From assembly GCA_050486545.1 (NCBI GenBank), contig JBJHDM010000006.1:27365-91364 (forward strand): DNA of 64,000 nucleotides, written 5' to 3'. Source of the DNA: Rhodocyclaceae bacterium. Its GTDB lineage: Bacteria > Pseudomonadota > Gammaproteobacteria > Burkholderiales > Rhodocyclaceae. Position 1 is the stretch's first letter, and every line of letters starts with the position of its first letter. Below the pieces are notes generated by a model that saw only the letters and a program-made list of their open reading frames with translations, was not told the DNA's origin and searched no databases. Made by a program: the position numbers and the translations under genes. This document shows, in pieces, positions 1-21,338 of this stretch.

Positions 1-2
1 GC

Positions 3-1189: not shown

Positions 1190-1265
1190 CCTCGATTCCC
1201 TCCTCTGTGCGCCCCTTCGTACCGCGGCCGCACAGCGACGGCAACCGACACGCGCAGGCGACTTT

Positions 1266-2156: not shown

Positions 2157-2170
2157 GATTTCACTCTCTG

Positions 2171-2791: not shown

Positions 2792-2872
2792 GTTGGAGAT
2801 TCTCCTCGATAGCGGGTTCCCGCCCCTGCGCCAACGCGCAGATCGTCCGCCGGGTATGTGCGTTCGAATCCA

Positions 2873-5110
2873 TCAGAACTTCATCGGGGACAGCCCGATC
2901 TCCTGAATCTGCGCCACGTAGTCGTTGATCAGCTTCGCGATGCGCGCATGATCGGTGATCGCAACCTCATGGCTGACCACGCGCTCCTTCTCCAGCGACA
3001 TCTGCTCGAGGGTATCGTCGACCTTGCTCATGCGGTAGTAAGCCATTTCCGAACCCCGCACGAAGTGGCACTGGTAGTCGTCGCCCTTCTTGCAACCGAG
3101 CATCATCACCCCGTCGTAGCCGGAGTTGAGTGCATCCGTGATCCAGATCGTGTTGACCGAACCCAGGCAGCGGACCGGGATCGCGCGAACGAAGGCCGAG
3201 TACGTATGGCGCTGCAGCCCTGCCATGTCGAGCGCCGGGTAGGCGTCGTTCTCGCAGGCAAGGATCAGGATGCGCGGCTTCTCCTCGAACTCGTCGGGGA
3301 TCTCGACCGCCTTGACCTGGCTGCCGACGGTGTCGACCGAGTAGTTCTCGAAGGAGATGACCCGCACCGGGCAGGCCCCCATGCAGGTTCCGCAACGACG
3401 GCAGCGCGACTCGTTGAACTTCGGAAAGCGCCGTTCGTCCTCGTCGATCGCCCCGAAGGGGCATTCGACGGTGCAGCGCTTGCACTGCGTACAGCCTTCC
3501 AGGCGTACGATCGGATACGACAGGTCGCCCACACGCGGATGCGAGGCGCGCCCGCGCTCCGCATTCTCGACCGCCTGGATCGCTTTCAGGGCCGCACCGG
3601 TGGCGTCCTCGGTCGCCTGGAACATGTCCATCGGGCGGCGCACCGGACCGGCCGCGTAGATGCCGGTGCGGCGCGTCTCGTACGGGAAGCAGATGAAATG
3701 ACTGTCGCCGAAGCCGTGGCGCAGCTGGGGCATGTCCGGCCCCTGGCGATAGGTCAGTTTTAGGACCGACTGCGAACGCAGGCGCTCGCGCTCCTCGGCG
3801 GCCTGTGCATCGCCGCCTTCGGCGACGGTGACGACCTTGTCCCACTCGTCGAGGTTCACACCGGCATTGGGCACCAGGCCGGTCGCGAGCACGACCAGAT
3901 CGGCTTCCTTCGTCGTCTCCTCGTCGAGAATCAGATCCTTCACGGTCAGTGTGCAGGACTCGCCTCCAGTGACCGCGGTGGCCTTGGCCTTGCGGAAGAG
4001 CACCCCCTTCTTCTGCGCGCTGCGGTAGAAGTCCTCGCCCATTCCGGGCACGCGCAGATCGTCGTAGAGGATGACGGTCTCGACCTCTGGATTGGCATCC
4101 TTGAAGTACATCGCCTGCTTGATGCTGGTCGCACAGCAGTGGCCCGAGCAATACGGCAGATGCTGGCCGCCCGCATCGCGCTGGCCGGCACACTGGACGA
4201 AGACGACGGACTTGACCTCCTTGCCGTCGGCCCGCGTGAGCGGCTTGCCGTCGGCTTCGCGTGCGAGCGCCTCGACCCCGACCTGATCGACGACATTGGG
4301 CTGACCGCCGCCGAGTTCCGGCAGCTTGGCCAGATCGTAGGTCGTGAAGCCGGAGGTCTGGATGATCGCGCCGACCGTCTCCTCGGCCACCGAACCGCTT
4401 TCCTGGGCAATGCTCGCCTTGAAACGTCCCGGAGCCCCGGACGTCTCGGCCAGGGTGGCATTCAGATGGACGGTGATGCGCGGATGGGCCGACACGAGTT
4501 CGGCCAGCGCTTCGGCGCCGGTCGGCTGGGCTTCGGCATAAGGCGCGCGGAACGGCGTGCGCTTCCACATCTGGCGGGCGAACCCGCCGAGCGCACCCGA
4601 TTTCTCGACGAGCACGACTTCGTAGCCCGCCTCGGCCGCCTCGTGCGCGGCCGTCATGCCCGACATGCCCCCGCCCACGACCAGGATGCGCTTGCTCGCG
4701 TTCTCGACCGGAGCGCCCGCGGGCACCGTCATCTTCTTGACTTCGGCACACCCCATGCGTACGTAGTCCTCGGCCATTTCCTGGCGGACTTCGTCGTGCT
4801 CCGAACCTTCCGCGACTGCCCACAGCACCCCTTCGCGCAGGTTGGCCCGCGACATCGCCACGCCGGGAAAACGGAACGCTTCGGTCTTGGAACGTCGCGA
4901 ACAGGCCGCGATACACAGGTGCGTGACCCCTTCGTTCGCAATGTCGTCGCGAATCCGTTGCACGCCTTCGGCGTTGCACAGGAAGGAATGGCTGCGCACG
5001 AGCGCCATCTTGCCTTCCTTCTGGGCGATCTTCTCGAGCGTATCGACATCGAGCGCATCGCCGATGCCGCAACCGGAGCAGACGTAGGCTGCAAATTTGT
5101 TATCGGCCAT
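2873..5110 (-). CDS. qmoB: QmoB, HdrA-like flavoprotein with ferredoxin and MvhD-like domains
   Basis: 745 aa. FAD motif VVGGGMSGMTAA. CTQCKRCTVECP and CRRCGTCMGACP motifs. C-terminal MvhD-type domain (ILILACENDAYPALD...MMLGCKKGDDYQCHF). ATG at 5110, 2 nt after the qmoA stop. Confidence 0.85.
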   Translation of the reverse strand: MADNKFAAYVCSGCGIGDALDVDTLEKIAQKEGKMALVRSHSFLCNAEGVQRIRDDIANEGVTHLCIAACSRRSKTEAFRFPGVAMSRANLREGVLWAVAEGSEHDEVRQEMAEDYVRMGCAEVKKMTVPAGAPVENASKRILVVGGGMSGMTAAHEAAEAGYEVVLVEKSGALGGFARQMWKRTPFRAPYAEAQPTGAEALAELVSAHPRITVHLNATLAETSGAPGRFKASIAQESGSVAEETVGAIIQTSGFTTYDLAKLPELGGGQPNVVDQVGVEALAREADGKPLTRADGKEVKSVVFVQCAGQRDAGGQHLPYCSGHCCATSIKQAMYFKDANPEVETVILYDDLRVPGMGEDFYRSAQKKGVLFRKAKATAVTGGESCTLTVKDLILDEETTKEADLVVLATGLVPNAGVNLDEWDKVVTVAEGGDAQAAEERERLRSQSVLKLTYRQGPDMPQLRHGFGDSHFICFPYETRRTGIYAAGPVRRPMDMFQATEDATGAALKAIQAVENAERGRASHPRVGDLSYPIVRLEGCTQCKRCTVECPFGAIDEDERRFPKFNESRCRRCGTCMGACPVRVISFENYSVDTVGSQVKAVEIPDEFEEKPRILILACENDAYPALDMAGLQRHTYSAFVRAIPVRCLGSVNTIWITDALNSGYDGVMMLGCKKGDDYQCHFVRGSEMAYYRMSKVDDTLEQMSLEKERVVSHEVAITDHARIAKLINDYVAQIQEIGLSPMKF

Positions 5111-5112
5111 GT

Positions 5113-6399
5113 TCAGGCGGCCTCCGTCGAAGCAGTCTTGTGGATCACTTGGATGGCACGCAGCGATGCGGCCGTCGCGTTCTGCACCGCGCGATTGACG
5201 TCGAGCGGGCTGCTCGCCGTTCCCGCGCCGAACATGCCGCCGTCGCACGATCCTTCGATGAAGGCCGAGCTGTCCAGAAGAAGGTCTTCCGGCAGGCTGA
5301 CCCCCTTGATCGCGGGTTCCATGCCGACCGCGAGCACGACGAGGTCGTGTTCGTTGGCGTAGCGGTGATAGCCCTCGGTATCGACGCCATGCAGCACCGG
5401 GTTGCCGTTCTCGGTGTTCTCGGCGATGCGTGCGACCTTGGATTTCACGAAATGGACGGTCTGGTCGGCGCGCACCTGCTGGTAGAAATCCTCGAAGCGG
5501 TCGATGACGCGCATGTCGATGTAGTAGATCGTCGAGCGCCCTTCGTCGCCGCAGGCGTCATGCACGTACTGGGTCTGCTTGAGCGAAGCCATGCAGCACA
5601 CGCGCGAGCAATGGCGCAGATGGTTCTCGTCGCGCGAACCGGCGCACTGGATGAAGGCGACGTTCTTCGCCTCCTGCCCGTCCGAGGGCCGCAGCAGCTT
5701 GCCGCCCGTGGGCCCACCCGGATCGGCCATGCGCTCGAACTCGACGCTGGTGATGACGTTCTTGAAGCGCCCGTAGCCGTAGGGCTGGATCTTCGCCGCA
5801 TCGTAGGGGCGCCATCCGGTCGCCCAGACGATCGCGCCGACCTGAAGCTCGACGCTTTCCTCCTGCATCCCGAGATCGATCGCGTCGAAGCGACAGGCCG
5901 CCTTCGCCTTCTCGCCCTCCTCGGTACCGACGATGGAAGGGTCGAGCACGTAGCGCTGCGGATAGGCCATGCCGTGCGGCAGATGGGCCGCCTTGACGGT
6001 ATCGAGCCCGTAGTTGAACGGATTGGGCACCTCGGCACTCACCGCCCGGCCGCAGTCGCCACAGGCCGTGCAGTTTTCATTGACGTAGCGCGGCGAGACC
6101 TTGAGCGTGGCGGTGTAGTTGCCCCGCGCTCCGGTCACCGACACCACTTCGGTCATCGTCATCACCCGGACGTTGGGATTGCCGCGAACGCGCTGGAGAT
6201 TGATCTCGAGCCCGCAGGTCGGGTGGCACATCTTCGGGAAATAGCGATAGAGCTGGGCGGTACGCCCACCCAGGGCAGGCGTCTTCTCGACGAGAATGAC
6301 CTGCTTGCCGCACTCTGCCGCTTCGAGTGCCGCCGTCATTCCGGAGATGCCGCCACCGACGACCAGGATGGTCTGGTTGGTTGCGATTGAAGCCGTCAT
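5113..6399 (-). CDS. qmoA: QmoA, HdrA-like FAD protein
   Basis: 428 aa. VVGGGISGMTAALEAA dinucleotide motif and HdrA-like Cys pattern. First gene of qmoAB-hdrCB. GGAGG RBS. Confidence 0.85.
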   Translation of the reverse strand: MTASIATNQTILVVGGGISGMTAALEAAECGKQVILVEKTPALGGRTAQLYRYFPKMCHPTCGLEINLQRVRGNPNVRVMTMTEVVSVTGARGNYTATLKVSPRYVNENCTACGDCGRAVSAEVPNPFNYGLDTVKAAHLPHGMAYPQRYVLDPSIVGTEEGEKAKAACRFDAIDLGMQEESVELQVGAIVWATGWRPYDAAKIQPYGYGRFKNVITSVEFERMADPGGPTGGKLLRPSDGQEAKNVAFIQCAGSRDENHLRHCSRVCCMASLKQTQYVHDACGDEGRSTIYYIDMRVIDRFEDFYQQVRADQTVHFVKSKVARIAENTENGNPVLHGVDTEGYHRYANEHDLVVLAVGMEPAIKGVSLPEDLLLDSSAFIEGSCDGGMFGAGTASSPLDVNRAVQNATAASLRAIQVIHKTASTEAA

Positions 6400-6453
6400 C
6401 GAGCCTCCGAGAGCGTTGATCCTGGATTCGTCCCCATACGCACGAGTCCAGTC

Positions 6454-6473
6454 ATGTTCCTGACGTGGAACAT
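6454..6473. promoter_or_regulatory. 7-6-7 inverted repeat ATGTTCC-N6-GGAACAT in the qmoA leader/promoter region
   Basis: Perfect inverted arms read directly from the sequence, 55-75 nt upstream of the qmoA ATG. Operator or 5'-UTR hairpin. Confidence 0.3.
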
Positions 6474-6515
6474 CCCCGAATGCGACGGGCTGCCGGATTC
6501 GGGTGAAACCAAGCC

Positions 6516-6589
6516 GTATTAGGCGTCTCCGGCGGGCTTCCCGTCTATTACCGCCTTGGGGTAAAACGGGTAGCCCACATGGGTGATGG
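6516..6589 (-). promoter_or_regulatory. conserved 74-nt upstream element, copy 1 (upstream of qmoA)
   Basis: Aligns with 13640-13712. Identical blocks of 11, 13, 8, 5, 3, 7 and 4 nt flank a 15-nt variable spacer. An extra shared 9-mer GCAGAACGG lies at 6595-6603. Confidence 0.55.
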
Positions 6590-6634
6590 ACCTTGCAGAA
6601 CGGCTCTATACAAGGGTTTGGACGTGATCAGGCA

Positions 6635-8485
6635 TCAGAACACCACGTTCAGCATGACCATCATCACGACCAGGAACAGCACCGTCATGATACCCCCGGC
6701 GCGCATGAAGTCCTTCACGCGATAGCCGCCCGGCCCCATGATCAGCGCATTGACCTGGTGTGTCGGGAGGAAGAACGAATTCGAGGTCGCCAGCGCCACG
6801 GTCAGGGCGAAGACCGCGGGATTGGCCCCGGCGATGACCGCCAGGTTGACCGCCAGCGGCACCAGCAGCACGGTCGCACCGACGTTGGACATGACCAGCG
6901 TGAAGAAGGTCGCCAGGATGGCAAGCGCGGCCTGCAGCACCCAGGTCGGCACATCCCCGAGCACGGCGACGGTCGAGTATGCGATCCACGCGGCCGTACC
7001 CGTCGTTTCGACGGCCAGCCCCAGCGGGATCAGGCTCGCAAGCAGAAACACCGATTGCCAGCCCACCGACCGGTAGGCCTGGTCGACCGTGAGCACGCCG
7101 CTCACGATCATCCCGATGGCGCCCGCCATCAGCGCGAGCGAAAGGCGGATGTCGGTGAACAGGATCAGGCCGAGGGCCAGCGCGAAGAAGGCGAGGGCAT
7201 GCGGAACCTTGTGCGGGCGTCGCTCCTCGTGCGGATAATCCGCCGTCACGACCGCGAAGTTGCGATTTCGCTCGAGTGCGGCCAGATCCTCCCAGCGGCT
7301 GTGCACGACGAGCGTATCACCCGCGCCCAGCGCGAAGTCACGCAAGCCCTCGCGGATCGCTTCCTCGCCGCGATGAACGGCGAGCACTGCCAGCCCGTAG
7401 GTCTTGCGCATGCGGATCTCGTGCAGCGTGCGTCCGATGAGCTGGGAGCCGGGCGGGATGACGATCTCGGAAATCCCTGCCTGACCGGGATCGAGGGTCT
7501 CGGCGAAGCGTTTCAGCTCGCGGCTGCGCCGCATGCCGAACGTAGCCACGGACGATTCGACGGTCTCGCGCGAACCGCACAGCGCGAGCACCGCACCGGC
7601 GGGAATCACGACGTCGCGCGCCGGGGCGATGCGCACGTCTCCGGAACTGTCGAGGGCGATGATCGGATGGCGATGTCCGAACAGGTTCTCGGCCTCCTCG
7701 ACCGTCTTTCCGACCAGCACGCTGTCGGCGTTGAGCGCGACCTCGTGGACCTCGCCATACACCCCGTAGGTGTCACGCAGGTGCTCGAGGATCCCGACCC
7801 CCTCGGCACCCTTCGACTCGACCACCGGCAGCACGAACCGGCCCGCGAGGATGAAGTACAGGATCCCCGTGGCCAGCAGCACGACCCCGATCGGCGTGAC
7901 GTCGAACAGCTCGAAGGTCTTCATCGGCTCGACGCCCGCCGGCAGCGTGCGGTTCGAGGTCAGGATGAGATCGTTCAGCAGGATCAGCGGACTGGACCCG
8001 ATCATCGTGATCGTGCCGCCGAGGATCGCGGCAAAGCCCATCGGCATCAGCAGGCGCGACATCGGCAGGCCGGTGCGGCTCGAGATGCGCGAGATCACCG
8101 GCAGGAACAGGGCAGCCGCCCCGATGTTCTGCATGAAACTGGAGATCACGCCGACCGTTCCGGCCACGGTCGGGATCACACGCTTCTCGGTCGAGCCCCC
8201 CACGTTCAGGATGAACGAGGCGACCTTCGCCATCAGTCCGGTGCGGTCGAGACCCGCACCGATGATCATCACGGCGATGATCGAGATGACCGCATTGCTG
8301 GCAAAGCCGTCGAAGAGGTTCTGGACGGGAATCAGATGCGGGATGCCCGGAATCACCGAGGTCAGCCCGAGCAGGACCATGACGAGAACCGCTGCGACAT
8401 CGACGCGCACGATGTCGGAGACGAACAGGAATACCGTGAAGGCCAGAAAGCCGAACACCCAGATCATCTCCGGGGTCAAGGTCAT
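6635..8485 (-). CDS. SLC13/DASS-family anion permease with two central TrkA-C domains
   Basis: ~616 aa. Hydrophobic N- and C-terminal halves separated by a ~200-aa soluble insert with TrkA-C-like repeats (IVIPPGSQLIGRTLHEI...). Start uncertain: ATG at 8485 or TTG at 8497. Confidence 0.75.
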   Translation of the reverse strand: MTLTPEMIWVFGFLAFTVFLFVSDIVRVDVAAVLVMVLLGLTSVIPGIPHLIPVQNLFDGFASNAVISIIAVMIIGAGLDRTGLMAKVASFILNVGGSTEKRVIPTVAGTVGVISSFMQNIGAAALFLPVISRISSRTGLPMSRLLMPMGFAAILGGTITMIGSSPLILLNDLILTSNRTLPAGVEPMKTFELFDVTPIGVVLLATGILYFILAGRFVLPVVESKGAEGVGILEHLRDTYGVYGEVHEVALNADSVLVGKTVEEAENLFGHRHPIIALDSSGDVRIAPARDVVIPAGAVLALCGSRETVESSVATFGMRRSRELKRFAETLDPGQAGISEIVIPPGSQLIGRTLHEIRMRKTYGLAVLAVHRGEEAIREGLRDFALGAGDTLVVHSRWEDLAALERNRNFAVVTADYPHEERRPHKVPHALAFFALALGLILFTDIRLSLALMAGAIGMIVSGVLTVDQAYRSVGWQSVFLLASLIPLGLAVETTGTAAWIAYSTVAVLGDVPTWVLQAALAILATFFTLVMSNVGATVLLVPLAVNLAVIAGANPAVFALTVALATSNSFFLPTHQVNALIMGPGGYRVKDFMRAGGIMTVLFLVVMMVMLNVVF

Positions 8486-9643: not shown

Positions 9644-11674
9644 TCAGGCGTGTGCCTTGAACAGCTTGCTCTTGTCGACCAGATCGACGTGCTGGCGCTT
9701 GAAGCAGGTCCACTTCTTCGTGTTCTTGTCATAGACCGAGTTCACGAAGCACTTCCAGTTCTCCTCGTCGACGAAGTTCTTGTCCATCCGGTAGTAGAAG
9801 CCGGGATAGCGGCTCTCTTCGCGGAACTGGATGTGCTTCATGTGCGCTTCGGCGGTGAGGATGCGGTGGTAGTTTTCCCACGCGCGCAGCAGCTCGTGCA
9901 GATCCTTGGCGCGCATCTTCTGCGCGTCTTCCTTGAGCATCTCGAGCTTCTCTTCCGCGACCTTGAGCATGTGCTCGTTGGTCGTGTAGTAGGTCGCCAC
10001 ACCGGCCACGTACTCGTCCATGATCTTCTGCAGGCGGAACTGCAGCATCTTGGGCGTGATGTAGTGCGGATTGACGTCGATCGCGGTGGTGTAGTCCTTG
10101 TGCTCCAGGTACGTGCGCACCGGCTTGTAGATCTCGGCGACCAGGGTATCGACATCGGTGTCGAGTTCCGGGGTCACGTCGGCGTTGTCGATCGCGTACT
10201 GAAGCATGGCCTTGGCCGCGAGCCGCCCTTCGGCGTGCGAGCCGGACGAGAACTTGTGACCGGAGGCGCCCACGCCGTCACCGGCGGTGAACAGGCCCTT
10301 GACCGTGGTCATGGAACGATAGCCCCAGCTCCAGCCCGACGGCAGGTTGGCCGGAATCTTGTCCTTCTCCGGGTGCGCTTCGTCGGTCGGCGCGCCCAGG
10401 TCGGTCGGACCCGACACCCAGATGCCGCAGCAGCCGGAGTGCGAACCCAGCAGATACGGCTCGGTCGGCATCAGTTCGGAGTTCTTCTTCTCCGGCTCGA
10501 CGTTCTCGCCCACCCAGATGCCGCACTGGCCGACGCACATGTCGAGGAAGTCTTCCCAGGCTTCGGCCTCGAGGTGCTTCACTTCCTTCGGCGTCAGGGT
10601 CTCGCGCAGCTTCGCGAGTGCCGATACCGTATCCATGTAGATCGGGCCGCGACCTTCGCGCATTTCCTTGAGCATCAGGTGGTTGCGAAGGCACGATGCC
10701 GGAACGGCGGCCTGCCCGTAGGGCGGGTAGTCGTCGAGCATTTCCTTGTTGCGCACCATGTACGGTTCGCCCATGGCGTTGGTGGCCTGCGACTTGAACA
10801 GCAGGAACCAGGCACCGACCGGACCGTAGCCGTCCTTGAAGCGGGTCGGAACGAAGCGGTTCTCCATCATCGTCAGCTCGGCACCAGCTTCCGCCGCCAT
10901 CGAGTAGGTCGAACCGGCGTTCCACACCGGATACCAGGCACGGCCCGTGCCCTCGCCGACCGAGCGCGGACGGAACAGGTTCACGCAGCCACCGGCCGCC
11001 AGCATGATGGCCTTGGCCTTGTAGACGTAGATCTTGTTCTCGCGTACCGAGAAGCCGACCGCACCGGCGATGCGGCCGGGGTCGTTCTTGTCGTTGATCA
11101 GCTTGACGATGAACACGCGCTCCTGGATGCGATCCAGGCCCAGCGCCTTCTTCGCGGCTTCGGCGACGATCCACTTGTAGGACTCGCCGTTGATCATGAT
11201 CTGCCACTTGCCCGAGCGCACCGGCTTGCCGCCGTCCTTGAGCGCCGGGATGCCCTCGCGGATCGACTCGGCGCCGTCATGGCGCACGCCGTCGTTATCG
11301 GTCTTCCAGATCGGCAGGCCCCATTCCTCGAAGAGGTGCACCGAATCGTCGACGTGACGACCCAGGTCGTAGGCCAGGTCGTCGCGGGTGATGCCCATCA
11401 GGTCGTTCGAGACCATGCGGGCGTAGTCGGCCGGATCCTGCTCCGGGCCGATGTAGGTGTTGATCGCCGAAAGGCCCTGCGCGACCGCACCGGAGCGGTC
11501 CATCGCCGCCTTGTCGACGAGCTTGATCTTGAGTTCCTTGCCGGTCTCGGCCTTGACGGCATCGGCCCAGCGCATCATTTCATAAGCGGTGCCGCAGCAC
11601 GCCATGCCGCCACCGATCAGGAGGATGTCCAGCTCTTCCTGGACGACTTCCGGTTGTTCGAATGTTCCTGCCAT
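9644..11674 (-). CDS. aprA: adenylylsulfate (APS) reductase alpha subunit
   Basis: 676 aa. FAD motif DILLIGGGMACCG. AprA-like sequence throughout. Follows aprB by 25 nt. Confidence 0.95.
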   Translation of the reverse strand: MAGTFEQPEVVQEELDILLIGGGMACCGTAYEMMRWADAVKAETGKELKIKLVDKAAMDRSGAVAQGLSAINTYIGPEQDPADYARMVSNDLMGITRDDLAYDLGRHVDDSVHLFEEWGLPIWKTDNDGVRHDGAESIREGIPALKDGGKPVRSGKWQIMINGESYKWIVAEAAKKALGLDRIQERVFIVKLINDKNDPGRIAGAVGFSVRENKIYVYKAKAIMLAAGGCVNLFRPRSVGEGTGRAWYPVWNAGSTYSMAAEAGAELTMMENRFVPTRFKDGYGPVGAWFLLFKSQATNAMGEPYMVRNKEMLDDYPPYGQAAVPASCLRNHLMLKEMREGRGPIYMDTVSALAKLRETLTPKEVKHLEAEAWEDFLDMCVGQCGIWVGENVEPEKKNSELMPTEPYLLGSHSGCCGIWVSGPTDLGAPTDEAHPEKDKIPANLPSGWSWGYRSMTTVKGLFTAGDGVGASGHKFSSGSHAEGRLAAKAMLQYAIDNADVTPELDTDVDTLVAEIYKPVRTYLEHKDYTTAIDVNPHYITPKMLQFRLQKIMDEYVAGVATYYTTNEHMLKVAEEKLEMLKEDAQKMRAKDLHELLRAWENYHRILTAEAHMKHIQFREESRYPGFYYRMDKNFVDEENWKCFVNSVYDKNTKKWTCFKRQHVDLVDKSKLFKAHA

Positions 11675-11699
11675 TTTCTCGACCCTCGATTCGTTTGGT

Positions 11700-12185
11700 T
11701 TACTTGCGGATCAGCTCGTCGGGACGTCCGGCACGATAGCCGTTCATGACGCCGCCGTTGTCGGTGCCCGTGAAGAACCCGGGCTTGCCGAGATCCGCCA
11801 TCTTCGGCGCCGGCTTGCCGCCATAGATGTCGATCGAACCTTCGGCCGTGGTGCGGATCGGGAACTTGAAGCGCTTCATCGTCCCGTTGCGGAACTTGAT
11901 CGTCCACATGATCGAGTCGGAGCCGCGCAGCGGCTGGACCATGCCGCCCAGCGGCACGATGTCGGCGTAGTGCCGGACCTCGATGGCGTTCTGCGGGCAG
12001 ATCTTGACGCACGAGTAGCACTCCCAGCACTGCTCGGGCTCCTGGTTGAAGGCCTTCATCGCGTGGCCGGTCTCGGAACCGTCCTTGTCGAGCTTCATCA
12101 GGTCATGCGGGCAGATATACATACAGGCGGTCTTGTCCTGCCCCTTGCAGCCGTCGCACTTCTCGGTACGAACGTAGGTTGGCAT
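11700..12185 (-). CDS. aprB: adenylylsulfate reductase beta subunit
   Basis: 161 aa. MPTYVRTEKCDGCKG...CMYICP and CWECYSCVKICP cluster motifs plus the AprB-type C-terminal tail. Confidence 0.95.
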   Translation of the reverse strand: MPTYVRTEKCDGCKGQDKTACMYICPHDLMKLDKDGSETGHAMKAFNQEPEQCWECYSCVKICPQNAIEVRHYADIVPLGGMVQPLRGSDSIMWTIKFRNGTMKRFKFPIRTTAEGSIDIYGGKPAPKMADLGKPGFFTGTDNGGVMNGYRAGRPDELIRK

Positions 12186-12257
12186 GGTTTCTCACTCCTT
12201 GGTTGCAACAGTCACAAATCGATTCACCCCGGCTTCGGCGGCCGCGACGAATTCCCC

Positions 12258-13466
12258 TCAGCGGGCCGAATGTCCCGACAGTTTGACTTCCACGCGCTCG
12301 GTCAATCCGGCGTAGTACTCGCGCAGGATGGCCAGCACCTCGGGCCGTGAAAACTCGGCCGGCACCTCGGCATCCTCGGACAACATCTTGCGCAGCTTCG
12401 TACCCGACAGCAACAGGCGGTGTTCTTCGTCATGCGGGCAGGTCCGGGCCGAAGCCATGCCGCCGCACTTGTAGCACCAGAAGGTCCAGTCGATCTTCAG
12501 GGGCTGGGTCTCGAGCGAACCCTTCGGGATCTCGTCGAAGATGCGGTGCGCATCGAACGGCCCGTAGTAGTCGCCCACACCGGCATGGTCGCGCCCGACG
12601 ATCAGGTGCGAACAGCCGTAGTTCTGGCGGAACAGCGCGTGCAGCAAGGCTTCGCGCGGACCCGCGTAACGCATGTCCAGCGGATAGCCAGCCTGCACGA
12701 TCGTGTTCTTGACGCAGTAGTTGTCGACCAGCGCATTGATCGCGCGGGCGCGCACGTCGGCCGGAATGTCGCCGGGCTTGAGGTTGCCCAGCAGCGAATG
12801 GATCAGCACCCCATCGCAGGTTTCGATGGCCACCTTGGCAAGGTATTCGTGCGACCGGTGCATCGGGTTGCGGGTCTGGAACGCCGCCACGCGGCTCCAG
12901 CCCATCGATTCGAACAGGGCACGGGTCTCCTTCGGCCACAGGAACAGTTCGCCGTAGCGCGTCGGAAAATCGCCCTGCGACAGGACCTTGATCGGGCCGG
13001 CGAGATTCACGTCGCCCTGCTCCATGACCATCTTGACGCCGGGATGCTCGAGATCCGTGGTCTTGAACACGGTCGCGCATTCGTGCGCCTTGTCGATGCG
13101 GTACTTCTCGGTGATCTTCATCGTCGCGAGCACGCTGCCGTCGTCCGGATCGACGAGCGCGACCTCCCCGCCCGTCTTGATGCCGTCGGCGACGACCTCG
13201 TCGGTGGACAGCGTGATCGGGATCGGCCAGAACAGGCCGTTGGCCATCTTCATGCCATCGCACACGCCCTGCCAGTCGGTATGGCTCATGAACCCGTCGA
13301 GCGGCGTGAAGCCGCCGATGCCGAGCATGATGATGTCGCCCTTCTCGCGCGAGCTGACCCGGATCTTCGGCAAGGTCGCCGCGCGTTCGCGCTCGGCCGC
13401 AAGGGCCTCGCCTTCCAGCAGCAAGGGTTTGAGACTTCCGCCTCCGTGTGGATTGACCAACGCCAT
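12258..13466 (-). CDS. sat: sulfate adenylyltransferase (ATP sulfurylase)
   Basis: 402 aa. [11 protein letters not shown] and GRDHAGVG signature motifs. GGAGGAG RBS. Confidence 0.95.
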
Positions 13467-13639
13467 ACGCCTGCTCCTCCAATGCCTACGGGCTCACCCT
13501 GCCCGGGATCCCTGCGGTGCCGACGCGGACCGCCGGTCTTGTGAGAACGGCACGGCTGCAGGTTGCCGCCGTGCCGCAGGCGCCCCGAGCCAAGTCCGGG
13601 GCGCGAACCAAGCGGGCGCAGCACGGGCGCCCGGGAGTC

Positions 13640-13712
13640 TGTATTAGGCGTGTTCGCCCCGCCCTGCGTCTATTACCGCGTTGGGGTAGCCGGGTAACCC
13701 TCATGGGTAATG
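13640..13712 (-). promoter_or_regulatory. conserved upstream element, copy 2 (upstream of sat)
   Basis: 73 nt aligning with 6516-6589. The shared GCAGAACGG lies at 13728-13736. It is 173 nt upstream of the sat ATG. Confidence 0.55.
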
Positions 13713-13773
13713 GCGCTGCCGCAATGGCGCAGAACGGGCGATTCCCCCACATAGAACGGGGAAGATCCGGCGC

Positions 13774-14289
13774 TCAGACGGGAGTTGGACGGATTTCGAA
13801 CGTCATATCCCGAAGGTCGCCGATCGCCCAGGTCGCTTCCGGAGCGCCCAGGCCGGCGACCGTCCCGGGATTGACCAGCCAGGTCTGGCCGCCCTTCACG
13901 TTGGGCTGGCTGCGGATCTCGGGCTCATGGCTGTGACCGCAGCACACGAGATCGTAGTCGCCGGTACAGGCCATCGCATGCCCGTAATGCGGGTAATGCG
14001 TGACGAAGATCCGCCGGCCGCCGAGCGTGATCGCCGCATCCTGTCCGTGGTAGATGAAGAGCCCTCCCGAACGGTGCGCGATCCGCGCGATGGCGACCGG
14101 GTCACCAAGGTTGTTGCCATGCACCGCATGAATCGGAATGCCCAGTTCGAGGGACGCCTTGATCGTATTGCCCCCGATGAGGTCGCCGCAATGAATCGCA
14201 ACCTCCGCGCCGGCATCACGCCCCGACCGGATCGCCTGCGCCAGCAACGGTCCGCGGTCGTGACTGTCGGAGACGATGCAGATTTTCAT
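13774..14289 (-). CDS. YfcE/MJ0936-family metallophosphoesterase
   Basis: 171 aa. MKICIVSDSHD, GDL, GNN, GHSH motifs. Confidence 0.8.
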   Translation of the reverse strand: MKICIVSDSHDRGPLLAQAIRSGRDAGAEVAIHCGDLIGGNTIKASLELGIPIHAVHGNNLGDPVAIARIAHRSGGLFIYHGQDAAITLGGRRIFVTHYPHYGHAMACTGDYDLVCCGHSHEPEIRSQPNVKGGQTWLVNPGTVAGLGAPEATWAIGDLRDMTFEIRPTPV

Positions 14290-14888: not shown

Positions 14889-16694
14889 TCACGCCGGCCC
14901 GTTCTGCGTCTTGAACTTCGAGGTCTCGCGTTCGACATCGGTCACGGCCTCGAGCAGCCGTTGCGCGACCTGCGCGAGGCCGTTGGCCTGCCGCTCGGCA
15001 TTGGCCGCGTTGCCGCTGGCACCGAGGATATGGCTGGCGATGCGGTCCGCGATGTCGTCCTGTTCCCGCGCCGCTTCGTTGACCTGGGAAAACTCGCGAT
15101 ACAGGGCTTCGATCGCCTGAACCGCTGCGGACAGCTCCCGTTCGGTGCTGTCGGAAGTTTCCGAGACTTCCCGGATCATTCCGGTGGTGCTCGAAACGAC
15201 GTCCTCGGCCACACCGATTTCGGCCACGAACTGCGACAACGCCTCGTTGACCGAATGGGTCAGCGCCGCGGTTTCGTTGGAAAGGCTGCGCACCTCGTCG
15301 GCGACGACGGCGAACCCGCGCCCGTTCTCTCCCGCACGCGCCGCCTCGATCGCGGCATTGAGGGCCAGCAGGTTGGTCTGCTGCGCGATCTTGTCGATCT
15401 TCTCGAGCCGCGACACGACTTCACGCGAGTTGCGCATCACCGTCTGCATGCGCGACGAGAAATCCTCGACACGACCGACCACCTGATGGGTGCATTCACG
15501 ATTGCGATGCGCACTGTCGCACGACCGCTGGATCACCGACACGATCCCTTCGAGCTCGCCGTGAATGCGCTCGACCACCTCCAGGACGCGGTGCGAGGAC
15601 GCCTTGAGGTGATCGGTGCGCCCGGCAATGTCGTTCAGTTCGGCAGCGATGCCGTGATTGCTGGCGGTGATATGACCGCTCGTCGCCGTCAACTCGGTGG
15701 CCGCGACGTGTACGTGCTGCATGCGCCGCTTGACCTCGCCGACAATGCCGTGGATCTTGCCGACAAAGCGGTTGAACAGTCGAGACACCAGTCCCATCTC
15801 CCCCTTGCCGCGATCGTCGAGCTTGCGCGTCAGGTCTCCGTCTCCTTGCGTCAGATCGTCGATACTGTGCACCAGCGCATAGATCGGCCGGTAGATCATC
15901 AGCCGGAAGACGAGCAGCACGATCAGGAACGCAGGCAGGAACACGGCCGACAGCACGGCCAGCATGCCAGTGAGATTTTCCTGGCGTTGTGCATTGGCAA
16001 AGGCGTTGCTGACGGTCACCTTGAGATAGCCGCCGAATTCCCCCTCCCTCCAGTTGGTGTGACAGATCACGCATTCGGAGACGACAGGCAATCGATAGTA
16101 GAACTGCGAGGCATCGTCTTCGATCCTGTGCGCGCGACCGCTCGCATCGAATGGAAGTCCGGTATCGATCATGTAGTGACAGCCGGAGCAATCGCGCCCC
16201 TGAGCCCTGACCTGGCCGATGTGCGCGACGGCGGCCGGGCTTTCGTTCTGATCCCGCGAGTTCCAGTCCTCGCGCTGATAGCGGCCCCGCGTACGCTCGT
16301 AGATGGCACGGTTCGGATTGTGCGCGCCGGCACCCTCGTAGTCGTGGACGAAAGGCTTGCCGACCGTGACGTCACCGGACCGGTAGTTCTTGAGGCCGAA
16401 GCGCGAATACAGCGCGACCTCGTCGACGGAATCGATCTGCGAGAAGGTGTCGATCACGTGCTGGAAGGTCTGCCGCTGCCCCTTGTTGATCGATTCGCGC
16501 GTGTCCTCGATCAACGTCGACAGCAGGCTGTAGCCGCTTTCGAGCACACGCTGCTCGAGGATCTGGTTCTGCCGGTGATAGAACGCACCGACCGAAAGCA
16601 GCGAGACCAGCATCACGCTGACGCTCAGGTACAGCAGCGCCCGAAACACCAGCGAGCGGGTGAATTGGATCCGGGTCTGCGCCGTCGTGCTCAT
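14889..16694 (-). CDS. methyl-accepting chemotaxis protein with a periplasmic di-haem-c (2 x CXXCH) sensor domain
   Basis: 601 aa. TM1 at about aa 15-39. Periplasmic loop with CSGCH (16176-16190) and CVICH (16059-16073). TM2, HAMP, then the canonical MCP hairpin [43 protein letters not shown], 22 nt after the hydrogenase small-subunit stop. Confidence 0.9.
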
Positions 16695-16716
16695 GTGCCC
16701 TTCCTTCGGAACGAAG

Positions 16717-17643
16717 TCAGAAGTCCCGTTCGATCACGCGCTCGTCGCCATGGCGATGGAACATGATCTGACGCGGGAAGTGTTCGCTCGCGCATCCCAC
16801 GCAGGGATGACCGGCGCGGATGCAACTGCTGGTGTTGTTGTTGTGGCCATTGATGAGGCAGTCGTTGCGCGTGACCACGCCCTGGCACCCGAGCTTCAGC
16901 AGGCAGCCGCTGTCGCCGATGAACTCGGCGTAGTGCTTCTCCTGAAAATCCGCGTAGTAGATGCACCGGTCATGGATGGTATGGCCGAAGAAACGCAGCG
17001 GACGATGTTGGGCATCGAGCGGAGGAGGACCTCCCTTCATTGCGTAATGCAGCAGCGTGTAGACGACGTGCTCGGGCTTCACCGGGCAACCCGGCAGCGC
17101 AACCAGCGGCTTGTCGAGGTTGCGCCCCTGGAGAAACTCCTCGAAAGTGAGGCTGCCGGTATCCATGTTGTTCATGCGCGTGACCCCGGCAAAGGCCGCA
17201 CACGTCCCGGCTGCCACGCACGCACTGGCGCGCGCGGCAAGCCGCTCCACCCAGTACGCCACCGGCCGGTGCCCGAGCAGGCATGCGTGGGGCATGGCTT
17301 CGGGAACGGAACCTTCCAGCACGAGGATGTATTCGAGGTCCGATTCGACCAGGCGATCGAGCAGATCCGTGACCTGTTCGCCCGTCGCCAGCGACAGGTC
17401 CGGATGGAAGATCAGGTTCGTGAACCGGGTGAGGATGTCGAGCACCGGGACATACTCGATGTCGAGCAGGCTGCACGAGCAGCCGCTGCACGAGCTGGCA
17501 TGGAGCCAGACGATGTTGAGGCGCCCGTCGGCACGTGCATCGGCCGCGAGCAGATCGTCGAAGGTCAGGAAAGTCGAAGCGCCGGTCGCAACGATCGCAC
17601 CGTAGATCCGCTTGAGCGCTTCGCGTCGGGTTATCGATTCCAT
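16717..17643 (-). CDS. [NiFe]-hydrogenase small subunit, Tat signal, no membrane anchor
   Basis: 308 aa. [11 protein letters not shown] twin-arginine leader. Cys motifs [24 protein letters not shown]...GCLLKLGC...C...C..GHPCVGC for three FeS clusters. Confidence 0.85.
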
Positions 17644-17660
17644 GCTGATTCCCGTCGTGT

Positions 17661-19208
17661 TCAATGAACCGAACAAGCCATGCACGGATCGCTGGAGCGG
17701 ATGATCCGCGCCAGCTCCAGCGGCTGCCCGGGGTTCTCGATGCGGGTTCCGAGGAGCATCTGCTCGACCGCTCCGGGACGCCCGGCGGCATCACGCGGAG
17801 ACATGTTCCAGGTGGTCGGGACGATCATCTCGTAGTTGCGGATGTATCCCCGTCCATCGGTCTCGATCCAGTGGCCCAGGCCGCCCCGGGTCGCCTCGGT
17901 CAGACCGAACCCGGTCGCATTCTTCGGCACGTCCCGCTCGATGAAGGCGGTAGCCTCGGGCTGGACCTGCGCAAGCTGCTCCTCGAGCAGATCGGCAATG
18001 CGCAGTGCGCAATGCACTCGCGCAAGATGTCGCCCCATCACCGAATCGTAATCGGACAGCGCCAACCCGAATCGCCGGTTGACGGCATCGACACTGCGAT
18101 TGAACGAGGGATCGGAGCCGCCGAGATAGGTGTTGATCACGCGGGCGGACGGCCCGACTTCCATGACCTCGCCCCCATAGCGCGGCGCCCGCGTCCAGCT
18201 GTACTTGCCGTCCTCGCGCGCCACCTCGCGCTGGTACTCGGCGAAATCGAGCGGCTGCAGCCGGGTGAGCTGCATCGGGCGCACGGCGCTCGATGGCTCC
18301 CCCTTGTACCACGCATAGGTGTGATCCTCTGTGATGCGGGACACATCGAGCGCCTCGTAGCGCCCCGAGAAACTCGCTCCGCCGGCAAACGCGTACTGCT
18401 CGCCGTCGGCATCGGGAAAGTACGGGTAGGACAGGAAGTTCCCGGGCCCCTTCCCCTCATGGAAGTACGACGGAAACGCGCCCGCCACTCCGAGCACGTC
18501 GTTCCGGTACTGTCCGCGGATGAAGGCCGTCGCCCGCTCGAGCCAGGTCCGGTAGCGGCCGAGCCGTTCAACCGTAGGCAGCGTCGTGACCCCACCGGCT
18601 TCGATCGCCACCGGATGCGGAGCCTTCGCACCGAAGACGGCGACCATCTTGTGCAGGTCGGCCATGATCGTCAGCGCATCCAGATAGCCCTTGATCGCCG
18701 ACAGGTTCAGCTCGGGGTCTTCCGCGTAGGCACCCTGGTATCGCGGCAGGAACGGCGCTGCGGGAAAGATCTTTCCGCTCGCCAGTTCACTGCGCACCCA
18801 GTCGCGAAGCGCGCCGAGGCCGGAATCCCGACCCTGATAGTCGAGCACCGCCGTGATGTCGATGAAGTCGAGGGCGGACAGCACGTAGAAATGCAGCAGA
18901 TGATCATGCAGCTGGTAGGCGCCCACGATCAGGTTGCGCAGGAGCTGCCCGTTGCGGTTCGGCCGGATCCCCATGGCCTGCTCCAGCGCGATGGCTGCCG
19001 CCTCGGCATGCGCGTACGGGCAGACCCCGCAGACCCGCTGCGTGACTTGCTGCGCCACACGGGCGTCGTAGCCGATCAACGCCTTTTCGATCCCTCGGTA
19101 CATGTCGCCCGAGCAGCGTGCATCGGCAACGATCCCCTGTTCGAGGCGTGTTTCGACCCGCAGATGACCCTCTATCCGGGTGACGGGGTCGATGACGACT
19201 TTCTTCAT
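17661..19208 (-). CDS. [NiFe]-hydrogenase large subunit without a C-terminal extension
   Basis: 515 aa. MKKVVIDPVTRIEGH and QRVCGVCPYAH motifs. The C-terminus is exactly DPCMACSVH-stop. Confidence 0.9.
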   Translation of the reverse strand: MKKVVIDPVTRIEGHLRVETRLEQGIVADARCSGDMYRGIEKALIGYDARVAQQVTQRVCGVCPYAHAEAAAIALEQAMGIRPNRNGQLLRNLIVGAYQLHDHLLHFYVLSALDFIDITAVLDYQGRDSGLGALRDWVRSELASGKIFPAAPFLPRYQGAYAEDPELNLSAIKGYLDALTIMADLHKMVAVFGAKAPHPVAIEAGGVTTLPTVERLGRYRTWLERATAFIRGQYRNDVLGVAGAFPSYFHEGKGPGNFLSYPYFPDADGEQYAFAGGASFSGRYEALDVSRITEDHTYAWYKGEPSSAVRPMQLTRLQPLDFAEYQREVAREDGKYSWTRAPRYGGEVMEVGPSARVINTYLGGSDPSFNRSVDAVNRRFGLALSDYDSVMGRHLARVHCALRIADLLEEQLAQVQPEATAFIERDVPKNATGFGLTEATRGGLGHWIETDGRGYIRNYEMIVPTTWNMSPRDAAGRPGAVEQMLLGTRIENPGQPLELARIIRSSDPCMACSVH

Positions 19209-19809: not shown

Positions 19810-20697
19810 ATGACATCGATGCATGACAGACCACAGACAGCCCGTATCGGCTTCGAGCTCATCGAGGGAACGTCCGACAGGCGCCATCTGGAGCGCATCC
19901 TCGCGGAAAACCGCTGGCTCGCCCAGGAGGCGATCTCGGCACGCGAGGACGAACGCAAGCATCTCGCCCGCGAGCTTCATGACGAACTGGGACAACTCCT
20001 GACTGCAATCCGTCTCGATGCTGAATTGCTGGAACGCGTGCTACCCGAATCCGGCCCGGAGCGTTCTGCGATCGCCGACATTCTCGAACAGGCACACCGT
20101 GCCCACGAGCGGATCCGCTCGATGACCCGCCGCCTGCATCCCCTCGAACTCGACTACCTGGGTCTGTTGAGCACCCTGCAACAGGAGTTGCGACAGTGGG
20201 AAGAGCGCCACCCAGGGACCCGTTGCGAGTTTCACGTCAGCGGTGATTTCGTGCATCTGGACGAGTCGCTGGTGATCGATCTGTACCGCATCGTCCAGGA
20301 ATCGCTCACCAATATTTCACGGTATGCCCAGGCGACCGAGGTCCGCATCTGCATGACGCGACTCAAGGCGGAGGATGCGGCGCTCGAACCCTTTCCGGAG
20401 CGTCGCCAGTTTCCTCGGGGGGAAGGCGTTCCCGGTCCAGGCTGCGGCCGCCATCCGGCGGCTTCGCATCCTGCAAGGACACCGCCGGCTCACCTCGTGT
20501 GTCTTTCCATCCGGGACGACGGCCGTGGCTTCGACCCGGCCACCGTGCGCATGGGATTGGGCCTGCTCGGAATGCGTGAGCGGGTCACGGCGCAGGGCGG
20601 ACACTTCGAACTGAACTCTGCGCCCGGCAACGGACTGGCCATCCTTCTCTGGATGCCGATCCGGCTTTCCTCACACAACGCCGACGCACCGGAATGA
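19810..20697 (+). CDS. sensor-less HisKA_3 (NarX/DegS-type) histidine kinase
   Basis: 295 aa. H-box ARELHDELGQ, N-box QESLTNISRYA, DDGRGF and GLGLLGMRERV motifs. An in-frame TGA at 19786-19788 excludes a longer N-terminus. Confidence 0.85.
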   Translation: MTSMHDRPQTARIGFELIEGTSDRRHLERILAENRWLAQEAISAREDERKHLARELHDELGQLLTAIRLDAELLERVLPESGPERSAIADILEQAHRAHERIRSMTRRLHPLELDYLGLLSTLQQELRQWEERHPGTRCEFHVSGDFVHLDESLVIDLYRIVQESLTNISRYAQATEVRICMTRLKAEDAALEPFPERRQFPRGEGVPGPGCGRHPAASHPARTPPAHLVCLSIRDDGRGFDPATVRMGLGLLGMRERVTAQGGHFELNSAPGNGLAILLWMPIRLSSHNADAPE

Positions 20698-21338
20698 GTA
20701 CGGGTCAGACCGGGATCCTGCTGGTCGAGGATCACGCCGTCGTGCGCGCAGGTTTCCGGCGCCTCATCGAAGCCCGCCCGGATCTGTCGGTGGTGGCCGA
20801 AGCCAGCACCGGCGAGGCTGCGGGACAACTCTATGCCACCCATCGTCCGGCCGTCACGGTCATGGATCTTTCCCTGCCCGGGATGAGCGGACTGGAAGCG
20901 ATGCGACGCATCCTGGCCCGGGACACGAGGGCGCGCATCCTCATCTTCTCGATGCATCGCAGCCCGGTGCTGGTGCAGCGCGCGCTGGAGGCCGGAGCTC
21001 GTGGCTACGTCTCGAAGGATTGTCCTTCGGGGATCCTGGTCGAGGCAATCGAACGGGTCGCCCGAGGCAAGCTCTACCTCGATCCATCGATTTCACAGGA
21101 TGTCGCGCTCGAACAACTGAGCGGCAGGCAGAGCCCGCTCGCCACGCTGACCCCCAGAGAATTCGAGATCTTCCGTTTCGTCGCCGAAGGCAAGAGCTGC
21201 GCCCAGATCGCGGAACAACTGCACCTGAGCGAAAAGACCATCGCCAACAACATCACCCGCATCAAGGGACGGCTCGGCCTCGCCACGACCACCGAGATGG
21301 TGCTCCTGGCAGTGCGATCCGGACTGATCCATCCGTAG
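20694..21338 (+). CDS. NarL/LuxR-family response regulator
   Basis: 214 aa. Receiver domain (ILLVEDH...MDLSLPGMSG) plus a LuxR HTH (LTPREFEIFRFVAEGKSCAQIAEQLHLSEKTIANN). 4-nt overlap with the kinase gene. Confidence 0.9.
   Translation: MSTGQTGILLVEDHAVVRAGFRRLIEARPDLSVVAEASTGEAAGQLYATHRPAVTVMDLSLPGMSGLEAMRRILARDTRARILIFSMHRSPVLVQRALEAGARGYVSKDCPSGILVEAIERVARGKLYLDPSISQDVALEQLSGRQSPLATLTPREFEIFRFVAEGKSCAQIAEQLHLSEKTIANNITRIKGRLGLATTTEMVLLAVRSGLIHP

Follow-up and report, generated by a model that had tools for sequence, protein, structure and literature searches.

Conserved linkage of a tail-less [NiFe]-hydrogenase with a di-CXXCH chemoreceptor points to a candidate periplasmic H2 sensor

Organization of the Hydrogenase-Chemoreceptor Operon

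The DNA analyzed here, a stretch of 64,000 nucleotides from a Rhodocyclaceae bacterium (contig JBJHDM010000006.1 of assembly GCA_050486545.1; the whole stretch is called the window in the following), carries three minus-strand genes encoding the large subunit (LSU) and the small subunit (SSU) of a [NiFe]-hydrogenase and a methyl-accepting chemotaxis protein (MCP), with gaps of only 17 nt between LSU and SSU and 22 nt between SSU and MCP. Because this trio recurs across at least five phyla, it probably represents an undescribed sensor that lets bacteria detect H2 and swim relative to it. The three genes and their parts, in positions of the window, are the following, with TM denoting a transmembrane helix.

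17661..19208, minus strand: LSU of the [NiFe]-hydrogenase, 515 aa; Pfam PF00374 (NiFeSe_Hases), 446 bits
16717..17643, minus strand: SSU of the [NiFe]-hydrogenase, 308 aa; Pfam Oxidored_q6 (PF01058) and NiFe_hyd_SSU_C (PF14720)
17536..17643, minus strand: predicted twin-arginine translocation (Tat) leader of SSU, residues 1-36, at motif level: TRREALK, a hydrophobic stretch, and LLAADA
14889..16694, minus strand: MCP, 601 aa, with TM1, a periplasmic di-CXXCH Cache-like domain, TM2, HAMP, and an MCP signalling domain
15969..16577, minus strand: periplasmic sensor domain of the MCP, residues ~40-242, Cache/PDC-like fold according to AlphaFold2 (AF2) and Foldseek, no Pfam family at threshold
16176..16190, minus strand: first predicted haem-c attachment motif, CSGCH, residues 169-173, invariant in orthologues
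16059..16073, minus strand: second predicted haem-c attachment motif, CVICH, residues 208-212, invariant; its surroundings align with the haem motif region in a DUF3365/sCache_heme MCP
15750..15890, minus strand: HAMP domain, residues 269-315; 23.5 bits, slightly below the Pfam cut-off of 25 bits
15030..15494, minus strand: MCP signalling domain, residues 401-555; PF00015, 112 bits

The L1 and L2 Ni-Fe ligand motifs and all cluster ligands of SSU, which together define a [NiFe]-hydrogenase, are present. LSU starts with MKKVVIDPVTRIEGH, features the L1 motifs RIEGH and RVCGVCPYAH, and is tail-less, ending in DPCMACSVH (SSDPCMACSVH) with His515 as the last codon in front of TGA; the signature of this subunit throughout its clade is CGVCPYAHAEAA. 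The twin-arginine motif of SSU aligns with the Tat motifs (RRxFLK) of HoxK, HyaA, HynS, and HydA, whereas the cytoplasmic sensor HoxB features no leader. Four Cys serve as ligands of the proximal cluster and four further Cys as those of the medial cluster, one of them standing, as in HoxB, at the position of the Pro of 3Fe-4S enzymes, and the distal cluster is bound by His and three Cys. The protein ends about 20 residues past the last ligand, with neither a C-terminal TM anchor nor a C-terminal extension of the HoxB type. Regarding the traits of group 1 enzymes, the twin-arginine leader on SSU is thus present by motif; the C-terminal extension of LSU, i.e., the substrate of HyaD/HybD-type endopeptidases, is missing as LSU ends at His515, and neither an electron-transfer partner (cytochrome b, Isp, or cytochrome c3) nor the order small subunit before large subunit was found. 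Besides, the leader segment following the twin arginine (GA..F.SF[DE][DE]LLAA) is conserved across phyla well beyond the degree usual for cleaved signal peptides and may be a chaperone-binding element, a docking element, or part of a retained leader.

The third protein shows the complete build of an MCP, with two TM helices around a periplasmic domain, a HAMP domain, and a signalling domain. Its helices are predicted at residues ~16-38 and ~243-265, enclosing a loop of ~200 residues with both CXXCH motifs, and both appear as long helices in the AF2 model. An earlier, sequence-only reading of this DNA had described three packed minus-strand genes with the above gaps, a 515-aa LSU stopping at DPCMACSVH, a 308-aa SSU with a twin-arginine leader, the Cys set for three clusters, and no anchor, as well as a 601-aa MCP with CSGCH and CVICH in a periplasmic loop of ~200 aa; coordinates, translation, and alignment bear out this description throughout.

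The Sensor Domain of the Chemoreceptor

No Pfam family covers the periplasmic sensor domain, which gave only sub-threshold matches to the NapC/NirT, MtrC, c7, and c3 profiles, and PF11845 (DUF3365/Tll0287) did not match it at E-values up to 1. The AF2 model, built from an alignment of 56 sequences (pLDDT 88.9, pTM 0.82), comprises a sheet of five strands with helical insertions, flanked by a long helix at the N-terminus and a further helix at the C-terminus. Foldseek matched this model to extracytoplasmic Cache/PDC sensors, namely WalK, vpHK1S-Z8, the haem-c sensor GSU0935 (3b42), and Tll0287 (5b82), and in hhalign the region of the second CXXCH locally matched the haem motif region of a DUF3365 MCP with 94% probability. 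Considering profile and model together, the domain fits best as a remote relative of the sCache_heme family that has two predicted haem sites.

Across phyla, the module of TM helix, di-CXXCH domain, and TM helix retains ~40% identity. The two CXXCH motifs are spaced by 39-40 residues in most orthologues and by 35-41 residues overall. Moreover, His158 is nearly invariant, and residue 102 is Met in at least 90% of the orthologues and Lys in this receptor (window positions 16389-16391). As both CXXCH motifs, the tail-less end of LSU, and the twin-arginine motif of SSU are invariant in every complete orthologue examined, their occurrence here is not due to chance.

A Distinct Clade of Tail-less Hydrogenases

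LSU has more than 1500 relatives; the best 120 of them all comprise 500-542 aa, mostly 513-524 aa (one entry of 500 aa is labelled partial), and originate from Thiocystis, Rhodoferax, Sulfurimonas, Arcobacteraceae, Desulfurivibrionaceae, Desulfurispira, and SAR324. A metagenome scan with the alignment of the clade yielded 55 loci at 48-100% identity, 24 loci at 33-37%, and none between these ranges, the latter 24 being used as non-clade control hydrogenases. All complete LSUs of the clade, i.e., 48 in a first set of genomes and encoding contigs and 47 from metagenomes, end with ...DPCx[AG]C[SA]VH directly in front of the stop codon, whereas 24/24 controls carry a tail of 14-20 aa. Likewise, the gene order in the clade is large then small, in contrast to small then large in the controls wherever SSU lay inside the stretch. 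Every clade SSU with a complete N-terminus features the twin-arginine motif and the hydrophobic stretch, and these align with bona fide Tat leaders.

Identity of the window's LSU to reference enzymes amounts to 34-39% for groups 1b/1c/1d/1e, 2a, and 2b and to 32% for group 1a. A rough neighbour-joining (NJ) tree with references of groups 1a-1e, 2a, 2b, and probable 2d places the clade as monophyletic beside 1b/1c/1d/1e and apart from 2a/2b. The sequence-only reading had named in advance a position inside a standard respiratory subgroup as an outcome that would speak against it; instead, the enzymes form their own clade, with 48-100% identity inside and at most 37% outside. The closest solved structures to LSU are soluble periplasmic Desulfovibrio enzymes (1e3d, E-value 1e-92), and SSU is closest to Allochromatium 3myr, with Desulfovibrio 2wpn also among the best matches.

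At four positions of the pocket and gas channel, LSU features the His after RIEG, the Val in CGVC, the His closing L1, and the Leu in HFYxL, where HoxC has Asp, Ile, Gln, and Phe, respectively. Judged by these residues, both catalytic pocket and gas channel correspond to the standard type of group 1 and not to the regulatory HoxC type, so that the likeness to known sensors is limited to the missing tail and the 4-Cys medial cluster. The possibility, raised as a question by the sequence-only reading, that the subunits fall near the group 2 sensors was consequently not borne out. Membership in group 2b was rejected because of the four diagnostic residues, the twin-arginine leader, and the missing HoxB extension. 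GGDEF/EAL genes near the operon of Thiocystis and a REC-GGDEF gene (REC, receiver domain) following a hybrid kinase also brought group 2c into consideration, which was rejected by means of the published L2 consensus and the Tat leader. A further tail-less LSU of 432 aa ending in FDVCSVCTTH is encoded just upstream of membrane-bound HydABC genes on a plasmid of Sulfurimonas paralvinellae (locus L057, positions 327-1625); it is probably a cytoplasmic group 2d-type enzyme, the "H2-sensing" hydrogenase of older epsilonproteobacterial genome papers, and stands outside the clade described here.

Conserved Linkage of Hydrogenase and Sensor

Linkage was examined from both sides. A scan of one genome per species with the sensor-domain alignment as query gave 46 loci, 41 of which had enough upstream DNA, and in 38 of these 41 informative loci LSU and SSU were directly adjacent to the sensor, the other three holding remnants. 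Starting from LSU, the sensor adjoins in 43/43 informative clade loci from metagenomes (42 downstream, 1 upstream) and in 0/24 controls. Additionally, 6/6 context look-ups of LSU homologues showed a di-CXXCH protein beside the hydrogenase. The synteny with the MCP, whose conservation in other genomes had been raised as a question by the sequence-only reading, is thus conserved.

Sensor loci were found in Gammaproteobacteria (Sedimenticola selenatireducens as the closest with 61% identity, Thiocystis, Thiorhodococcus, Chromatium, Halorhodospira, and Methylomonas), in Desulfobacterota (Desulfurivibrionaceae and Desulfuromonadales), in Campylobacterota (Sulfurimonas, Sulfurospirillum, Arcobacteraceae, and Nautiliaceae), and in SAR324. 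The linkage of hydrogenase and transducer is kept in these four and in Chrysiogenota, i.e., in at least five phyla. Cultured organisms with the trio include Sedimenticola selenatireducens DSM 17993, Thiocystis violacea DSM 208, Thiocystis minor DSM 178, Desulfurispira natronophila, and Desulfurivibrio dismutans; the occurrences in Sulfurimonas are confined here to metagenome-assembled genomes (MAGs), and cultured Sulfurimonas with the trio are possible.

The three remnants differ from each other. An uncultured Chromatium MAG (L014, positions 2900-8318) retains an intact SSU and a di-CXXCH MCP, with cobalamin-biosynthesis-like genes in the place of LSU, which reflects either gene loss or an LSU encoded elsewhere. 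Thiorhodococcus mannitoliphagus DSM 18266 (L019, positions 6579-6947) has suffered a deletion of ~2.2 kb that joins LSU residues 3-96 to SSU residues 281-308, and the 814-aa di-CXXCH MCP downstream of the deleted hydrogenase is intact. The third is a MAG with truncated genes. The only full-length and apparently intact exception to the linkage is a 493-aa di-CXXCH-GGDEF protein in GCA_000469585.1 (L063, positions 6001-7482), which features no hydrogenase within 6 kb.

Pairwise identities over 66 distinct loci correlate strongly, with r=0.90 for sensor versus LSU and r=0.92 for sensor versus SSU, to which the shared species phylogeny contributes; these values fit an inheritance of LSU, SSU, and sensor as one module. 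Only these three genes are conserved together, and the genes flanking them in the window are not kept elsewhere. Over ~100 loci, no partner of the cytochrome c3-like, cytochrome b, or Isp type accompanies the clade in a conserved manner, and no endopeptidase gene was present in any related neighbourhood examined. In some lineages hyp genes flank the operon, as in a Sulfurimonas MAG (L004, positions 1-7725) and in L064 (positions 1-3400 and 11680-13908), where the set comprises hypA, hypD, a hypE-like gene, a HypX-like gene for a protein with Formyl_trans_N and ECH, hypF, a hypB-like cobW, and hypC.

Output Modules Fused to the Sensor

The family of the sensor domain is small. An exhaustive phmmer search of 1.84 billion representative proteins retrieved 98 proteins with the domain, 51 of them at E-values below 1e-30, and the family amounts to ~55 clusters at 50% identity among these representatives; orthologues were likewise retrieved with the full MCP as query, and the empty result of a word-indexed protein search with the sensor domain alone reflects a limitation of that tool. 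Among 46 representative full-length proteins, the output domains were MCPsignal in 37, HATPase_c in 5, and HisKA, Hpt, REC, and GGDEF in 3 each. Desulfurivibrionaceae carry the sensor on a CheA-like kinase with Hpt and HATPase domains, followed by CheX and a receiver, and in SAR324 it sits on a protein that matches a receiver only weakly and whose C-terminal region is unassigned. Furthermore, a hybrid histidine kinase of 1065 aa with the sensor follows LSU and SSU at a locus where a REC-GGDEF gene comes next and hyp genes flank the operon, and the sensor is also fused directly to GGDEF domains. As it is combined with MCP, CheA-like kinase, hybrid histidine kinase, and GGDEF outputs, the sensor represents a signal-input module, in agreement with what would be expected of a sensory function.

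Genomic Surroundings in the Window

The sequence-only reading had also stated that cytochrome b, Isp/Hdr-type partners, hyp genes, and a protease gene are absent from the window. Searches with tblastn (E<0.01) using proteins of Cupriavidus pHG1 revealed no homologue of HoxZ, HoxM, HypA-F, HypX, or HoxL/O/Q/R/T/V in the window, which confirms this for cytochrome b, hyp, and protease; the claim does not hold for Hdr-type proteins, since QmoA-, QmoB-, and HdrC-like genes are present. The MCP is the only protein of 56 likely window genes with CXXCH in an exported domain, and no other c-type cytochrome is encoded nearby. The Hdr-like genes and nearby genes of sulfur metabolism are:

5113-6399, minus strand: QmoA-like
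2873-5248, minus strand: QmoB-like, with a C-terminal MvhD/FlpD domain
2171-2791, minus strand: HdrC-like 4Fe-4S protein
9644-12185: aprBA
12258-13466: sat
725-1273: SoxY

The Qmo/Hdr-like genes lie beside aprBA-sat and are not kept with the hydrogenase elsewhere; they are therefore regarded as partners of Apr and not of the hydrogenase. Presumably, this Hdr-related electron-transfer set serves adenosine-5'-phosphosulfate (APS) reductase in a sulfur oxidizer. Divergent from the operon and separated from it by a gap of 600 nt, a soluble HisKA_3 kinase and a NarL-type regulator are encoded at 19810-21338 (plus strand). These two genes stand beside the operon in no examined locus except two that are identical to the window, i.e., Logan contig SRR31311414_67684 (L001) and metagenome contig OBJA01008915.1 (L115). 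Both contigs match the window with 100% identity over LSU and the upstream kinase and regulator, and the same organism thus recurs in public samples. The kinase and regulator were dropped from the model as not conserved, together with a 164-aa open reading frame, a metallophosphoesterase, and a TPR-methyltransferase.

Around the operon, sigma-70 promoters, intrinsic terminators, and the sigma-54 pattern did not occur above chance, and an Rfam scan returned only a tRNA at 38769-38850. Farther away, a CBS-SpoIIE phosphatase, a DUF6272 protein, and a SiaC-family phosphoprotein (42564-44881, plus strand) look like a SiaABC-like partner-switching module and are followed by an NtrC-type regulator and a histidine kinase (44923-47810). 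A molybdopterin oxidoreductase, a 4Fe-4S subunit, an NrfD-type membrane subunit, and a TorD-like chaperone (50078-55589, plus strand) look like a Psr/Phs/Ttr-like complex.

Proposed Mechanism and Alternative Explanations

Beyond the gene anatomy, motifs, clade limits, conserved linkage, modular outputs, and fold that were observed, we infer that the enzyme is exported and docks on the receptor, that haem is attached there and takes up electrons, and likewise which sign the response has and how the haems are reset. It appears fairly probable that the three genes encode a periplasmic H2 sensor in which H2 oxidation reduces the haems of the receptor and thereby biases chemotaxis. This explanation, the simplest one for the gene anatomy, is that of the sequence-only reading, and comparative genomics supports it: of the three outcomes that this reading had named as refuting, the two open to sequence analysis, phylogeny and linkage, both turned out in its favour. 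LSU would be matured without C-terminal proteolysis, and the twin-arginine leader of SSU would take the folded heterodimer across the membrane. As neither an anchor nor a cytochrome b is present, the enzyme is expected to be soluble, and it would dock in the periplasm on the Cache-like domain of the MCP, which would carry two covalent c-type haems. H2 would be oxidized at the Ni-Fe site of standard type, and the electrons would pass via three [4Fe-4S] clusters to the receptor haems; the surface His that commonly ligates the distal cluster is retained. The supply of H2 on one side and an oxidant on the other would determine the redox state of the haems and, with it, the conformation of the sensor dimer; this change would travel along TM2 and HAMP to the tip of the MCP and to CheA, biasing swimming relative to H2. 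In other lineages, the output of the same module would be a GGDEF domain, a CheA-like kinase, or a hybrid histidine kinase working with a REC-GGDEF regulator. With somewhat less assurance, but still on balance, we favour the wider view that a widespread and so far unrecognised class of [NiFe]-hydrogenases, unprocessed and Tat-exported, acts as periplasmic H2 sensors and passes electrons directly to a dedicated di-haem Cache domain borne by chemoreceptors, kinases, and diguanylate cyclases. A signalling rather than a respiratory role is suggested since the enzyme has no conserved membrane or cytochrome partner, since the coupling outlasts the exchange of output domains, and since gene order and tail-less end separate the clade from every respiratory control.

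Several points weigh against this reading. Haem attachment, Tat export, and the complex of hydrogenase and receptor are predictions from motifs and synteny, the reset of the haems would call for an oxidant, and conservation across orthologues yields no distal haem ligand, the nearly invariant Met102 being Lys in the window. Moreover, the sensor occurs without an adjacent complete hydrogenase in L063 (on a GGDEF protein), in the Chromatium MAG (no LSU), and in Thiorhodococcus (hydrogenase deleted). With the standard catalytic residues His, Val, His, and Leu in its active site and gas channel, the enzyme could also work in H2 uptake at full rate and donate to cytochromes whose genes lie elsewhere in the genome. 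In that case, an ordinary uptake hydrogenase, soluble and periplasmic, would feed the general periplasmic cytochrome c pool, as the Desulfovibrio enzymes feed cytochrome c3, and the receptor would not be its direct acceptor but merely read the redox state of this pool in the sense of energy taxis. The standard catalytic residues, the His-ligated distal cluster, the soluble periplasmic Desulfovibrio enzymes as nearest solved relatives, and the occasional sensor without adjacent hydrogenase (L063) are in line with such a function. Nevertheless, it is considered unlikely, as ~100 loci lack a conserved cytochrome c3-like, cytochrome b, or Isp partner and leave the transducer as the only invariably linked gene, the linkage survives the change of the output domain, and the tail-less end and reversed gene order are unlike those of all control uptake enzymes.

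A further point against H2 as the signal is that related sCache_heme sensors have been reported as NO sensors (PMC12889525). The di-haem Cache domain could correspondingly bind NO, CO, or O2, with the hydrogenase as an accessory reductase that uses H2 to hold the haems in, or bring them back to, the ferrous state able to bind ligands. Local homology and fold likeness to sCache_heme, GSU0935, and Tll0287 agree with this, as does the NO-sensing behaviour of sCache_heme domains on signalling modules (PMC12889525), and the haem may be five-coordinate since no conserved sixth ligand can be assigned. Still, thousands of single-haem sCache_heme sensors have been described without a dedicated reductase, a whole Ni-Fe enzyme would be a costly accessory, and the domain lacks a PF11845 match and features an extra invariant haem site that suits an electron relay, which renders gas-ligand sensing quite unlikely. 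We regard it as highly unlikely that H2 is sensed by a conformational change in the hydrogenase-receptor complex without net electron transfer and with CXXCH sites of structural or other function, a mode that is at times discussed for HoxBC-HoxJ, even though the mechanism of HoxBC-HoxJ-type regulatory hydrogenase-kinase systems is itself unsettled (PMC6978683) and the strict co-inheritance of hydrogenase and sensor would suit such a complex. Two invariant haem-attachment motifs in the obligate partner of a redox enzyme are most simply explained as electron acceptors, and the distal cluster retains the surface His typical of partner-donating enzymes.

Novelty and Significance

At redox interfaces, H2 serves as an important energy currency. 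To our knowledge, no bacterial H2 chemoreceptor has been known so far, and our literature search, which mostly covered sources outside subscription journals, turned up none either. The only H2 taxis in the literature searched concerns an archaeon, with no receptor assigned (PMC3817446). Sensory hydrogenases and haem-c Cache chemoreceptors are each known already on their own. The obligate periplasmic pairing of both and the clade of tail-less, exported enzymes with the order large then small appear to be undescribed, as the same search gave no [NiFe]-hydrogenase linked to an MCP or a haem sensor. The architecture had not been known as described to the sequence-only reading, and the search likewise brought up no description.

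The module thus offers a concrete, testable candidate for an H2 receptor that is present in cultured organisms. If the proposal holds true, it would explain H2 chemotaxis of bacteria at the molecular level for the first time, and the receptor would be the first to obtain its ligand signal in the form of electrons from a partner enzyme. Moreover, the clade challenges the view that exported [NiFe]-hydrogenases require a C-terminal processing checkpoint before Tat transport, and it adds a class to the hydrogenase classification. Classifiers may file its enzymes as respiratory group 1, which would lead to an overestimate of H2-respiring taxa in metagenomes. Additionally, the recently recognised haem-containing Cache sensors would be extended to a two-haem, enzyme-coupled form.

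Comparison with Known Systems

The soluble periplasmic [NiFe]- and [NiFeSe]-hydrogenases of Desulfovibrio (groups 1a/1b) resemble the clade by a Tat-type leader, a missing anchor, and a presumed haem-c acceptor, and the [NiFeSe] enzymes additionally share the 4-Cys medial cluster. However, they show only 35-39% identity to the window's enzyme, and their acceptor is a soluble multihaem cytochrome instead of a receptor domain. The Clostridium reference of group 1a and the 24 controls differ from the clade in their LSU tail and small-then-large order. As an example of annotation, which does not imply membership in the clade, the Nautilia genome paper files a soluble periplasmic hydrogenase without membrane-anchor subunit as an uptake enzyme.

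Linkage of hydrogenases to signalling proteins is listed in the HydDB table of 2016, with group 2b as histidine-kinase-linked, group 2c as putatively diguanylate-cyclase-linked, and [FeFe] group C2 as putatively chemotactic and MCP-linked (PMC5037454). This table ties no [NiFe] class to MCPs or chemoreceptors (PMC5037454). Like the clade described here, group 2c and [FeFe] group C2 are predicted from gene linkage to sense H2, acting via cyclic di-GMP or MCPs (PMC5037454), and some members of the clade would likewise signal to a REC-GGDEF protein. Nevertheless, the group C2 enzymes are of the [FeFe] type and unrelated to the clade in sequence. Group 2c is described as cytosolic with the L2 consensus SFDxCLVCTVH (PMC4853749), and on the basis of this published consensus the clade is set apart by its L2 motif RS[STAIV]DPCx[AG]C[SA]VH and its Tat leader.

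The closest known relatives of the sensor domain belong to sCache_heme, the name under which a 2026 preprint reclassifies DUF3365/Tll0287/GSU0582, and which it describes as a Cache family with one haem whose signalling members behave as NO sensors (PMC12889525). Its members feature a periplasmic Cache fold, formerly termed PAS-like, with a covalent c-haem motif and MCP, kinase, or GGDEF outputs (PMC12889525, PMC3460858). The word "hydrogenase" occurs 0 times in this preprint (PMC12889525). The Cache fold with a CXXCH element is shared by the window's sensor, in contrast to the PF11845 match and the single haem site. Whereas sCache_heme proteins, including the Geobacter MCPs GSU0582 and GSU0935, carry one CXXCH, the family described here carries two invariant ones and is nearly always found beside a hydrogenase.

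Among sensory systems, the regulatory hydrogenases of group 2b, i.e., HoxBC-HoxJ of Cupriavidus necator and HupUV-HupT, share several traits with the clade: LSU is tail-less (HoxC ends with ...CTVH), the medial cluster is of the 4-Cys type, and a hydrogenase dedicated to signalling, putatively so in the clade, is coupled by its genes to a transducer. HoxC shows 34% identity to the window's LSU, and the NJ tree places the clade with group 1. Unlike the clade, HoxBC is cytoplasmic, lacks a Tat leader, and features a long C-terminal extension of HoxB, and its small-subunit gene precedes the large-subunit gene. HoxBC works with a cytoplasmic PAS histidine kinase, whereas the partner of the clade enzymes is a periplasmic, putative haem-c domain.

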